This document shows, piece by piece, positions 39,699 to 42,999 of a DNA stretch of 42,999 bases. This DNA comes from a virus. Lineage: Duplodnaviria; Heunggongvirae; Uroviricota; Caudoviricetes. The stretch is from IMG/VR virus record IMGVR_UViG_2703718845_000002, positions 1 to 42,999 of that record; one strand, written 5' to 3'. Position numbers and translations under genes: made by a program. The first letter of the stretch is position 1. Every line of letters begins with the position of its first letter. The notes under the pieces are model-generated. The model was not told where the DNA came from. It did no database searches and worked only from the letters and a program-made list of their open reading frames with translations.

Positions 39699-40375
39699 CA
39701 CCAGAAATTATCCTCGAACGAACTGGCATTGACGTTACCCGCGTTGAACAGGGAGATGAATCCTGGCACCGCTTACGCCTGGGCGTGATCACCGCCTCGG
39801 AAGTCCATAACGTCATTTCGAAGCCGAGATCAGGCACCAAGTGGACTGACATGAAAATGTCTTATTTCCACACGCTGCTCGCAGAGGTATGCACCGGCGC
39901 GGCGCCGGAAGTTAACGCCAAGGCGCTGGCCTGGGGAAAACAGTATGAGGCCGACGCTCGAACCCTGTTTGAGTTCACCACCGACGTGAAGGTAACGGAG
40001 TCACCGATCCTTTTCCGTGACGAAGGTATGCGCACCGCCTGCTCACCAGACGGCCTGTGCAGTGATGGCCGCGGCCTTGAGCTGAAATGCCCTTTCACCT
40101 CTCGCGACTTCATGAAGTTCCGGCTTGGCGGCTTCGAGGCTATCAAATCCGCCTACATGGCCCAGGTGCAATTCAGCATGTGGGTAACCAGGAAGGACGC
40201 CTGGTATTTCGCGAATTATGACCCTCGCATGAAGCGAGAAGGCATTCATCACGTGGTTGTTGAGCGCGACGACAAATACATGTCCGACTTCAACGAAATG
40301 GTGCCGGAGTTCATCGAGAAGATGGACGAATCGCTGTCGGAGATCGGTTTCACCTTCGGGGAACAGTGGAAATGA
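39695..40375 (+). CDS. exo: Lambda exonuclease (Exo)
   Basis: [40 protein letters not shown]...GFTFGEQWK is near-identical in pattern to lambda Exo along its whole length. Confidence 0.9.
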
Positions 40376-40530
40376 AAACTAACCACGACGGAATCACCGT
40401 TGGAAGTATCACTCTTCCCTATTCCATCAATCGCCGGGGATGGATCGCCCCAAGCGGCGACGTTATCAAAAATCCATTAAAGGCTCAGCGGCTGGCTGAG
40501 CTGATGAACAGTAAGAAGGTGATGGCATGA
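40372..40530 (+). CDS. Small hypothetical protein (52 aa), not in supplied track
   Basis: ATG at 40372 overlapping the exo stop (ATGA) and TGA overlapping the methyltransferase ATG; [52 protein letters not shown]. Confidence 0.4.
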
Positions 40531-41186
40531 GCGAAAAATACTCTCTGATTTATGCCGATCCGCCATGGGCTTATGAGAACACAATCAGCAACGGCGCCGC
40601 AGTGGACCACTACTCGACGATGCGACTCATCGACCTGAAGCGTCTGCCAGTGTGGGAACTGGCTGCCGAAAACGCGGTGCTTGCGATGTGGTACACCGGC
40701 ACCCACAACCAGGAGGCGATCGAGCTGGCCGAGGCCTGGGGCTTTACGGTGCGCACGATGAAGGGCTTCACCTGGGTGAAGTTGAATCAGTTGGCTGAGC
40801 TGCGCATTACCAAGGCTCTGGCAGATGGAGATGTGACCGACTTTTACGACTTCCTCGACCTGTTGAATGCCGAGACGCGCATGAACGGTGGCAACCATAC
40901 CCGCGCCAATTCTGAAGACGTGCTGATCGCTACCCGCGGCGCCGGGCTGGAACGTAAGCACGCCGGCATTAAGCAGGTGGTCTACAGCCCGCTCGGCGCA
41001 CACAGCGAAAAACCGTGGGAAGTTCGCCACCGCCTAGAACTGCTCTACGGCGACGTGCCGCGGATTGAGCTGTTCAGTCGCAGCGCAGCGCCAGGCTGGA
41101 GCCACTGGGGCAACCAGTGCGCCACCGCTTCCGTTGAGCTGATCCCTGGCTGCGCCATCGACGTTGTGAAGGCGGAGGCAGCATGA
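40527..41186 (+). CDS. MT-A70 family N6-adenine DNA methyltransferase
   Basis: N-terminal LIYADPPWAY contains the DPPW catalytic motif; 219 aa. Confidence 0.8.
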   Translation: MSEKYSLIYADPPWAYENTISNGAAVDHYSTMRLIDLKRLPVWELAAENAVLAMWYTGTHNQEAIELAEAWGFTVRTMKGFTWVKLNQLAELRITKALADGDVTDFYDFLDLLNAETRMNGGNHTRANSEDVLIATRGAGLERKHAGIKQVVYSPLGAHSEKPWEVRHRLELLYGDVPRIELFSRSAAPGWSHWGNQCATASVELIPGCAIDVVKAEAA

Positions 41187-42352
41187 GCGCGGCAGCGTAC
41201 TACAACGAGATCGACCCATTCGCGGCGCAGTGGCTGCGTAACCTCATAGCCGCCGGGCATATCGCCCCGGGCGAAGTTGACGAACGGAGTATTGAAGATG
41301 TCACACCTGACGACCTCAGAGGATTTACCCAGTGCCACTTTTTCTCCGGTATCGGCGTCTGGTCCCATTCCCTCCGTCTCGCCGGATGGCCAGATGATCG
41401 CCCGGTCTGGACTGGCTCCTGCCCGTGCCAGCCTTTCAGCGCGGCAGGCAAAGGAGATGGGTTTGCTGACGAGCGGCACCTTTGGCCCCACTTCTTCCAT
41501 CTCATCAGCGAGCGCAGACCTCAGCATGTCTTTGGCGAACAGGTTGCAAGCGGTAACGCAAACACATGGTTCGACCTTGTACAAGCTGACCTGGAAGGAC
41601 TGGGATACGCCTTCGGGCTTGTGCCGTTTACGTCAGCGGGCATCGGTGCGCCGCACATCAGAGAGCGGGCCTACTGGGTGGCCAACGCCGACAGCGTCAT
41701 CAGTGACCGGCGCGGGAACATCCGGGCGTCAGGGCGGGATGAATATTCAAACAGCGGCGATGATGTCCGGCTGGCCGACTCCAACCACGATCGACAACAA
41801 CCAGGTCAGGGGGCTGGGTGCCGCTGCCAATGCGCCGAACAGGGGATCGACATTGGGAGGGGCGGCCAGAATGGCGGGCTGGGTAACGCCAACGTCGCGC
41901 GACTGGAAAGACTCGGCGGGAATGACGGCGCAGCGGGACGGGAAAGAGCGACTGGACCAGCTGCCGCGCCAGGCGTTCATGACGGGATGGCCAACACCGA
42001 CAACGAGCAACACTCGATCGCCATCAGTGGATGCGGCCATGAACATGTATCGACAGGACGGCAGCAAGACCCAGCAGCGTCTGCAGGACTTCGCGGGGAT
42101 TACCGGACCCTTGAGGTTAACGGTTTTTGGCGAGATGCGGACTGGCTCTTATGTCGAGATGGCAAATGGCGTCCAGTTGAACCCGGCACATTCCCGCTGG
42201 TTGATGGGGCTGCCGCACGCCTGGCACGAGTCGAGCCCGGGGTGGCAAGAGTGGCAAGCAGCAACCGCGTCTGCCGCCTGAAGGGCTACGGCAACGCCAT
42301 AAACGCCCAGGCAGCTGCGGCTTTCATTCGCGCTTATATGGGGGTCGCATGA
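41183..42352 (+). CDS. DNA cytosine-5 methyltransferase, with apparent reading-frame discontinuity in the target-recognition region
   Basis: Frame of 41183 carries motif I (FFSGIG), IV (SCPCQPFS), VI-like (FGEQV), VIII (HIRERAYWVA) and motif X-like GYGNAINAQAAAAFIRAYM, with ATGA coupling to the next gene; the middle of the gene shows conserved repeats only in the other open frame (41277..42281). Confidence 0.55.
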   Translation: MSAAAYYNEIDPFAAQWLRNLIAAGHIAPGEVDERSIEDVTPDDLRGFTQCHFFSGIGVWSHSLRLAGWPDDRPVWTGSCPCQPFSAAGKGDGFADERHLWPHFFHLISERRPQHVFGEQVASGNANTWFDLVQADLEGLGYAFGLVPFTSAGIGAPHIRERAYWVANADSVISDRRGNIRASGRDEYSNSGDDVRLADSNHDRQQPGQGAGCRCQCAEQGIDIGRGGQNGGLGNANVARLERLGGNDGAAGRERATGPAAAPGVHDGMANTDNEQHSIAISGCGHEHVSTGRQQDPAASAGLRGDYRTLEVNGFWRDADWLLCRDGKWRPVEPGTFPLVDGAAARLARVEPGVARVASSNRVCRLKGYGNAINAQAAAAFIRAYMGVA

Positions 42353-42567
42353 CGCCAGAAGAAAAGAAATATGCGCTCAGAAGCATCGCGCGCAGGGCTA
42401 ACGATGAGGTTAAGGCAAAACGGCGGTCATCTCCCGCTTTAAGTTGCGACGAGATATCACGACCGATCCTCAACGGATGCATGCCGCTGATAAGGCAGCT
42501 TGGGTTAACGCCAAGTCATCTCTATGTGGAGATCGGTATTTTGAACGGAAAGATAAAGGAGCGCTGA
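42349..42567 (+). CDS. Hypothetical protein
   Basis: 72 aa, ATG at 42349 overlapping the methyltransferase stop. Confidence 0.5.
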   Translation: MTPEEKKYALRSIARRANDEVKAKRRSSPALSCDEISRPILNGCMPLIRQLGLTPSHLYVEIGILNGKIKER

Positions 42568-42568
42568 C

Positions 42569-42802
42569 ATGCCAGAAATCATCGATCAGGCCAACGAGCT
42601 GGCAGAGCGCCGGCTGGAAATGACCATCCAGAACATGCGCATCAACCATGCGGCAGTCTCGGCTACTCACTGCCGCGACTGCGGGGAAGAGATACCCGAG
42701 CGGCGCCGGGAACTTGTGGCGGGATGCCAGCGCTGCGCTGACTGTCAGGAAGAGCTTGAAGAACGTGGTAAGCATTTGGCTGTAACGAGAGGTGGAAGAT
42801 GA
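42569..42802 (+). CDS. TraR/DksA-family C4 zinc-finger protein
   Basis: 77 aa with CRDCGEEIPERRR ... CQRCADCQE (four Cys in C4 spacing); AAAGGAG SD. Confidence 0.7.
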   Translation: MPEIIDQANELAERRLEMTIQNMRINHAAVSATHCRDCGEEIPERRRELVAGCQRCADCQEELEERGKHLAVTRGGR

Positions 42803-42999
42803 AACATGAGATGCAACCAGATAGCCTTGTTGATCTGAAATTCATCATGGCGGATACTGGCTTTGGAAAAACCTTCATTTACGACCGGATTAAGTCCGGC
42901 GATCTCCCCAAAGCCAAACTCATCCACGGCAGAGCAAGGTGGTTATATAGTGACCACTGCAAATTCAGAGAAAAGCTCCTGTCCCGCTCCGATGGGTAA
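42799..42999 (+). CDS. AlpA-family DNA-binding protein / putative excisionase
   Basis: 66 aa; LKFIMADTGFGKTFIYDRIKSGDLPKAKLIHGRARWLYSDHCKF matches the AlpA/Xis HTH pattern; stop at the window end, integrase expected downstream. Confidence 0.65.
   Translation: MKHEMQPDSLVDLKFIMADTGFGKTFIYDRIKSGDLPKAKLIHGRARWLYSDHCKFREKLLSRSDG

Follow-up and report, generated by a model that had tools for sequence, protein, structure and literature searches.

The stretch of DNA analysed here (the window) is the 42,999-nt IMG/VR virus record IMGVR_UViG_2703718845_000002, assigned to the Caudoviricetes. On its + strand, positions 41183..42352 hold an open reading frame (ORF) of 389 residues, hereafter alpha, that carries the catalytic motifs of a C5-cytosine methyltransferase (C5-MTase). 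Wholly inside alpha, and in its +1 frame, lies a second coding sequence (CDS) of 327 residues, hereafter beta (41298..42281, + strand), which covers 84% of alpha. A first-pass annotation of this DNA had described two long overlapping ORFs with C5-MTase elements distributed over two frames, a description confirmed by the ORFs themselves, the match to PF00145, alignment with hhalign and diversity by codon position. It had explained this arrangement by two compensating indels, sequencing error or inactivation in the window copy, an explanation we reject, since the same layout is found in every relative examined, both frames are open beyond chance and beta possesses its own Shine-Dalgarno sequence and ATG. 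Conservation, freedom from stops and purifying selection specific to the frame are seen for alpha and beta alike, and the start signal of beta is conserved as well; the gene is probably functional and not a pseudogene.

Along alpha, the elements follow one another in the order II-like, III-like, I, IV, VI, VIII, an unconserved middle that is read through, a conserved C-terminal block and a putative motif X. The chain scored 50.5 bits against Pfam PF00145 (cut-off 22), which places it in this family, the match being limited to residues 76-171 (profile positions 65-164 of 324). NCBI relatives are named "DNA cytosine methyltransferase", and the score with TIGR00675 in the NCBIfam scan was 37.7, under the cut-off of 100.65. 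With hhalign, alpha 42-174 aligns with M.HhaI 6-177 (comparison sequence checked against PDB entry 10mh) at a probability of 98%, spanning motifs I to VIII. This bears out the four catalytic motifs previously assigned to the frame: motif I, FFSGIG (41339..41356), aligned with M.HhaI FAGLGG; motif IV, CPCQPFS, with the catalytic cysteine (41420..41440); motif VI, FGEQV, which is ENV-like (41531..41545); and motif VIII, IRERAYW (41657..41677), whose 3' end overlaps the first GWPTP of beta (all on the + strand). An N-terminal segment resembling motifs II (YYNEID) and III (SIEDV) lies upstream of motif I, at 41198..41302 (+; alpha 5-39 on M.HhaI 36-71, E = 0.0016). Since this segment precedes FFSGIG, and M.HhaI 31-70 are skipped in the main alignment, the order in alpha reads II-III-I-IV, departing from the canonical collinear arrangement (I-II-III-IV ... 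target-recognition domain-IX-X in one polypeptide). To our knowledge, a permutation placing II-III before I has not been described for C5-MTases. The permuted stretch, motif I included, takes up window positions 41198-41356 (residues 5-58); its N-terminal part, YYNEIDPFAAQWLRNL ... DERSIEDV, aligns with the motif II-III region of M.HhaI. At the other end, YGNAI (42287..42301, +), a motif X-like pattern kept in all relatives, is followed by a helix-like stretch, and the protein finishes in ...RLKGYGNAINAQAAAAFIRAYM. Of the motif X-like C-terminus with ATGA coupling proposed earlier, the coupling holds, with ATGA stop/start overlaps at both ends of alpha (to the upstream MT-A70 gene and to the next gene downstream), and motif X is present as a pattern only. 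The low-complexity character ascribed to the middle of this frame was also found, as residues 168-310 consist of G, R, A, N, D or S to 64%, vs. 46% in the remaining protein.

The +1-frame ORF overlapping alpha runs over 41277..42281, giving 334 residues when counted from a TTG. We set the start of beta at 41298, because a start signal is conserved there and homologs align from residue 1. The proposed signal (41286..41300, +) comprises GGAG (41286-41289), an 8-nt spacer and ATG (41298-41300), and lies within the alpha codons for DERSIEDV. Among 97 relatives, the ATG is kept in 93 and the GGAG in 86, the latter because the Arg-Ser codons are nearly always CGG/AGG followed by AGT/AGC, even though Arg and Ser have six codons each; alpha-synonymous diversity dips locally at 41282-41305. 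Gene callers begin thousands of beta homologs at the same Met, and 10,304 cluster representatives match beta, most of them from their own residue 1 to residue 1-16 of 41298..42281. Phage N15 must begin its beta later, near the equivalent of 41457, because a stop lies upstream. The chain begins MSHLTTSEDL... and opens with a variable tail, of which the first ~40 residues are poorly constrained. Next comes a block (residues 40-125; LSARQAKEMGLL ... GSTLYKLTWK ... RASVRRTSE) that is also conserved in phages of Pseudomonas, Xanthomonas, Burkholderia and Vibrio; the four GWxTP modules follow, and the C-terminus is motif IX-like. Each of the two frames is represented in PHROGs; the families that match beta, phrog_1008 and phrog_31772, are both labelled "DNA methyltransferase". 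Sequence and profile searches with beta gave no match in Pfam, NCBIfam or PDB.

The modules of beta can be recognised at the nucleotide level by the degenerate pattern GGNTGGNNNACNCCNAC, which occurs exactly four times in the 43-kb window (41676, 41769, 41877 and 41985); dinucleotide shuffles of the window gave a mean of 0.02 matches, and none of 100 shuffles reached four. Four M-x-GWPTPT repeats had been reported at these positions. All four coordinates stand; the sites read GWPTPT, GWPTPT, GWVTPT and GWPTPT in the +1 frame, so that the third deviates, and "M-x" precedes three of them. The Pro-to-Val codon aside, every difference between them falls on a third position of +1-frame codons, which, together with the codon-position diversity described below, upholds the protein-level selection claimed for that frame in the middle of the gene. 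On the + strand, the window thus carries module 1, of type B (GWPTPTASSVTG..., 41676..41768), module 2, of type C (GWPTPTTIDNNQ..., 41769..41876), module 3, of type D, the commonest type in the family (GWVTPTSRDWKD..., 41877..41984), and module 4, of type E (GWPTPTTSNTRS..., 41985..42107). When beta was split at its GWxTP sites in 97 sequences, ~30 module types, each ~30-40 residues long, were found in more than 50 arrangements (B-C-D-E in the window), and their number ranged from one in minimal relatives up to ~10 in some beta homologs. The variable region is therefore made of tandem exchangeable modules, the architecture of a multispecific phage C5-MTase. By analogy, the modules would recognise DNA targets, and a conserved 17-nt sequence at their borders, GGNTGGCCNACNCCNAC, may provide recombination microhomology. 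In one JGI metagenome contig (L101, 1380-3278), about ten GWxTP modules make up a beta of 572 residues and the alpha frame is open for 633 codons, reading CPCPSF for CPCQPF and YGDAI for YGNAI; the gene caller called only beta.

Downstream of the modules, beta holds the motif IX-like element LNPAHSRWLMGLPHAW (+ strand), where hhalign pairs beta 227-259 with M.HhaI 260-292. Such an element had been placed near 42195..42230; it is indeed present, and spans 42177..42224, position 42195 being the R of RWLMG. Over 42146-42215, a motif IX-like pattern can be read in both frames and in the same register (alpha RPVEPGTFPLVDG, beta (V)QLNPAHSRWLMGLP), each matching M.HhaI RKLHPRECARVMGYP in where its L/V, P, L/V and G fall; this is possible because of the GTTG, CCCG and GGGG runs in the DNA. 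A little further on, the 9-bp tandem duplicate already noticed in the first reading, GTGGCAAGA/GTGGCAAGC, was found to be near-perfect and to lie one base off, at 42242..42259 instead of 42243..42260 (+). It encodes WQEWQ in beta and ARVAS in alpha and forms part of a clade-specific beta tail, WQEWQ being common to epsilon15 and Klebsiella phages. When isolated C-terminal fragments (from alpha, from beta and from a beta-to-alpha chimera) were scanned against Pfam, none had a match.

Relatives were gathered in two ways, as 21 phage records collected with beta as query and as 80 IMG/VR loci fetched by alpha similarity; an open second frame was in neither case a criterion of selection. The nested layout is present in all 21 phage records and in ~75 of the 80 viral contigs. 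Both sets together contain 87 intact alpha genes, and in all but one of these (86) the +1 frame runs for 240-360 codons without a stop; the +2 frame contains 13-26 stops. The hosts of phages with this layout include Klebsiella, Salmonella, Escherichia, Erwinia, Pseudomonas, Vibrio, Cronobacter, Xanthomonas, Burkholderia, Rhodobacter and Komagataeibacter. Nearest among the phage records are the Klebsiella phages RCIP0114, ST13-OXA48phi12.5 and 2 LV-2017, followed by Salmonella epsilon15; all of them are two-frame, and their middle parts are mosaics of different segments. Further examples are N15 gp58, ESSI2_ev129, Erwinia Eho59, and Pseudomonas PMG1, PAT1 and K1ind2, and the weakest tblastn matches (LASTA, Bas70, phiXaf18 and N133) are nested as well. 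Among ~100 loci, these weakest matches included, none was found to have its elements united in a single frame. The homolog comparison that had been suggested as a test of the shifted-region explanation gave a divided answer, as the 41183 frame is collinear and open through the middle, and the WPTPT repeats, whose absence from relatives was to accompany this, are present in the +1 frames of the homologs. About 5% of the loci carry genuine lesions (PMG1, L011, L039, L044 and L088). In the Pseudomonas phage PMG1 (L008), the alpha N-terminus is out of frame at ~1080-1140, through what looks like a short duplication (…DVDERSID / RSIEDVHPDDL…), and this break is either a true lesion or a sequencing error in the record.

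The openness of the two frames exceeds what their codons would yield by chance. In a shuffle test, synonymous codons were permuted with the protein of one frame fixed, and stops were counted in the other frame. The middle of alpha is open in 84 of 84 sequences, with a mean chance probability of 0.14; among representatives sharing less than 70% identity, it is open in 30 of 30 where 5.3 are expected (product of probabilities 1e-32). Conversely, beta is open over the N-terminal part of alpha in 12 of 13 representatives (2.7 expected; 1e-11). The two codes compete base by base, because the third alpha position coincides with the second of beta, and the first of alpha with the third of beta, and nucleotide diversity by codon position across relatives divides the gene into zones. 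From 41183 to 41410, only alpha is constrained, with a diversity of 0.27-0.43 at alpha position 3 and below 0.15 at the other positions. In a doubly constrained zone (41414..41675, +), where alpha motifs IV-VIII lie over the conserved beta block, alpha position 3 falls from 0.27-0.37 to 0.07-0.26. Between 41676 and 42100, only beta is constrained; diversity peaks at alpha position 1 (beta position 3, where the maximum lies from 41663 on) and has its minimum at alpha position 3, so that alpha shows the opposite of what a coding frame would. A nearly invariant dual-coding block follows (42104..42200, +; alpha FWRDADWLLCRDGKWRPVEPGTFPL over beta PLRLTVFGEMRTGSYVEMANGVQLNPAHSRW), with values of 0.01-0.22 at all three positions, a conservation that accounts for the identity of 84-87% at the DNA level even with phages of Burkholderia, Bordetella and Pseudomonas. 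Beyond about 42260, diversity once more peaks at alpha position 3, and the alpha-only zone resumes.

These observations are best explained, in our opinion with a probability of about 0.75, by a two-polypeptide C5-MTase of the M.EcoHK31I kind, with alpha and the nested beta encoded by one and the same stretch of DNA. In this scheme, alpha would contribute motifs I-VIII, for S-adenosylmethionine binding and catalysis, as well as motif X at its C-terminus, and its central third (~41678..42100) would be a read-through spacer whose residues are free to vary as long as stop codons are avoided. Beta would be translated independently from the internal GGAG-N8-ATG in the +1 frame, supplying the conserved N-terminal block, the tandem GWxTP array and the motif IX-like element, and hence the small DNA-recognising domain. 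The two chains may then associate non-covalently into an active enzyme, as those of M.EcoHK31I do, and several modules could correspond to several target sequences. The likely role of the enzyme would be to methylate phage DNA and so evade host restriction, together with the MT-A70 adenine methyltransferase, whose upstream gene is translationally coupled to alpha. For the translation of beta, the association of the chains, the specificity of the modules and the activity of the enzyme, we infer from the sequences and from the known systems discussed next.

Compared with canonical monomeric enzymes such as M.HhaI and PF00145 members, the alpha chain has no conserved target-recognition domain, and a motif IX-like element lies in the other frame. 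The C5-MTases of Bacillus phages (SPR, phi3T, rho11s, H2) are single polypeptides with tandem short target-recognising domains, the combinations of which vary, presumably enabling the evasion of several host restriction systems. The tandem modules in the variable region described here recall these multispecific enzymes in architecture only, and the window gene, unlike theirs, uses two frames. A closer parallel is M.EcoHK31I, together with its isoschizomer M.EaeI. M.EcoHK31I is a heterodimeric C5-MTase, the beta gene of which is nested in alpha in a different frame (Lee, Kam and Shaw, 1995, cited in PMC2836561 and PMC3404938); its alpha chain has motifs I-VIII and X, beta has motif IX, and both are needed for activity. 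Internal beta start codons occur within its alpha gene, and the N-terminal part of beta matters for association (PMC2836561; PMC3404938). On the basis of this published layout, the window beta resembles that of M.EcoHK31I in lying entirely within alpha, on the same strand and in another frame; its own N-terminal part includes a conserved block. It differs in that its family carries one to ~10 shuffled modules, and in that M.EcoHK31I belongs to a restriction-modification system, whereas the window gene sits in a prophage recombination/early region beside an MT-A70 methyltransferase, with no nuclease seen. M.AquI is also comparable, as a C5-MTase naturally divided in its variable region, the two resulting polypeptides having to assemble; however, its subunits comprise motifs I-VIII and IX-X, nesting is not described, and motif X is in the small subunit, as opposed to the large chain here (PMC3404938).

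Several points weigh against the two-chain interpretation. For M.EcoHK31I, published work assigns the target-recognition domain to the alpha chain, unlike the window gene, in which selection on the variable region acts in the beta frame. When beta is aligned locally with M.HhaI by hhalign, the top alignment sits in the motif IX register and is weak (E = 0.12), and the putative motif IX of beta went undetected in Pfam and PDB profile searches; likewise, motif X of alpha is supported by the YGNAI pattern and by alpha-type selection after 42260, and no profile detects it. AlphaFold2 models built from an 83-sequence alignment were unusable for both chains (mean predicted local distance difference test, pLDDT, of 30 for alpha and 43 for beta), probably owing to alignments that are too shallow, at 61-96% identity. 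The shuffle statistics overstate independence even after redundancy filtering, because the sequences are related, although the effect is large despite this kinship, and the nucleotide alignment of the mosaic middle, on which the beta-only zone (41676-42100) depends, is imperfect.

Alternatively, alpha and beta might each be a genuine protein with a function unconnected to the other's, beta being an overprinted gene with some other role and alpha working, or failing, as a methyltransferase alone. In favour of this, beta is without a match in Pfam, NCBIfam or PDB, the statistics tying it to motif IX are weak, and alpha retains a motif IX-like RPVEPGTFPLVDG of its own in the same register. We nevertheless regard this as unlikely. 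The alpha middle shows no amino-acid constraint, so that alpha alone has no conserved target-recognition region, whereas the beta modules sit at the very position of C5-MTase target recognition and are followed by LNPxxSxWLMGxPxxW; moreover, PHROGs labels both beta families "DNA methyltransferase", and M.EcoHK31I has the same geometry. The motif order across the frames, being that of a canonical enzyme, could also result if ribosomes were programmed to shift frame twice, by +1 past motif VIII and by -1 past motif IX, and so made one canonical polypeptide, and a formal -1 heptamer, C_CCG_GGG, does exist in the beta frame (42236-42242), between motif IX and the beta stop. It is, however, found in only 45-47 of 97 relatives, all of one clade (with the SSPGWQEWQ tail), and is probably incidental; no slippery site was found at the first junction, and in 58 of 97 relatives the beta stop lies beyond the alpha GNxx motif. 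A shifted ribosome would have no need of the alpha middle that is open in all 30 representatives, nor would it account for the constraint on beta from ~41414, some 260 nt upstream of any possible shift site, for the bases shared by motif VIII and the first GWPTP, or for the conserved Shine-Dalgarno sequence and ATG of beta itself. Frameshifting thus appears quite improbable.

Damage to the window copy, or its mis-sequencing, through two compensating indels or ongoing inactivation, is harder still to credit. Real lesions do affect ~5% of relatives, but the window copy is collinear with 86 intact ones, relatives 95-96% identical to it have the same length and frames, a single-frame relative was not found among ~100 loci and both frames are under purifying selection. 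In other words, the hallmarks of a pseudogene or an artefact (a private lesion, relatives intact in one frame, relaxed constraint) are not those observed. Two ancient compensating frameshifts are, on the other hand, a possible origin of the family as a whole.

The two-chain arrangement may extend far beyond the window. We tentatively suggest, while holding it more doubtful than the reading of the window gene itself, that a very large phage and prophage C5-MTase family (~10,000 beta clusters at 50% identity) consists of obligate nested pairs, in which the whole DNA-recognition part would be a separate, recombining beta chain (one to ~10 GWxTP modules plus motif IX) in the +1 frame over 0.8-1.7 kb, the centre of alpha a stop-free spacer, and the alpha motifs permuted. 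If this were true, the same-strand overlaps would be unusually long and widely conserved, and standard annotation pipelines would miss beta systematically. For the window, the analysis corrects an apparent pseudogene call and adds a second, predicted 327-residue protein that an alpha-only annotation lacks. More generally, a same-strand overlap of 1 kb kept across phages of alpha-, beta- and gamma-proteobacteria represents a clean natural case of dual coding, with separated constraint zones. Should the modules set specificity, prophages would carry readily reshuffled multi-target 5-methylcytosine (m5C) methyltransferases, which bears on restriction evasion and on the methylomes of Klebsiella and the Enterobacteriaceae, where m5C is often missed by standard long-read analyses. 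Most noteworthy are the spread of the arrangement throughout the family, the array of modules in beta and the uneven way in which beta has been annotated.

Regarding annotation, both nested genes are recorded in K1ind2 ("C-specific methylase" and "Mte8-like protein") and in PhiXhv-18 (two "DNA methyltransferase" CDSs). Beta alone is annotated in PMG1, JC01 and Burkholderia vB_E184 (there as "putative metabolic enzyme"), and alpha alone in most records and in the NCBI-named relatives listed; the inconsistency can be followed across loci L008, L010, L092, L094 and L096. A literature search for "Mte8" returned only the GenBank label itself, and full-text searches turned up no description of the nested gene in this phage family within the literature covered.

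The genes around alpha encode a DUF1317 protein (40366..40530), the MT-A70 family methyltransferase (40527..41186), whose stop overlaps the alpha start (ATGA), a 72-residue ORF of no family (42349..42567), a TraR/DksA zinc-finger protein (42569..42802) and a product with a weak HTH_17 match (42799..42999), a gene order also found beside the integrase of Klebsiella temperate phages, in their early/recombination region. The G+C content of 41183-42352 is 61.7%, vs. 52.4% for the whole window, as would be consistent either with a foreign origin or with the avoidance of stop codons where DNA is dual-coding. In the Komagataeibacter phage phiKX2 (L093), alpha reaches 549 residues because of ~165 extra codons between GKFRPVEP... 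and RVGRLRGYGNAIVPQ (1996-2514); within this insert, an HNH-like ORF (…HVHHISENRSDNHPENLKTLCPSCHKLSH) lies in another frame, and alpha is open across it.

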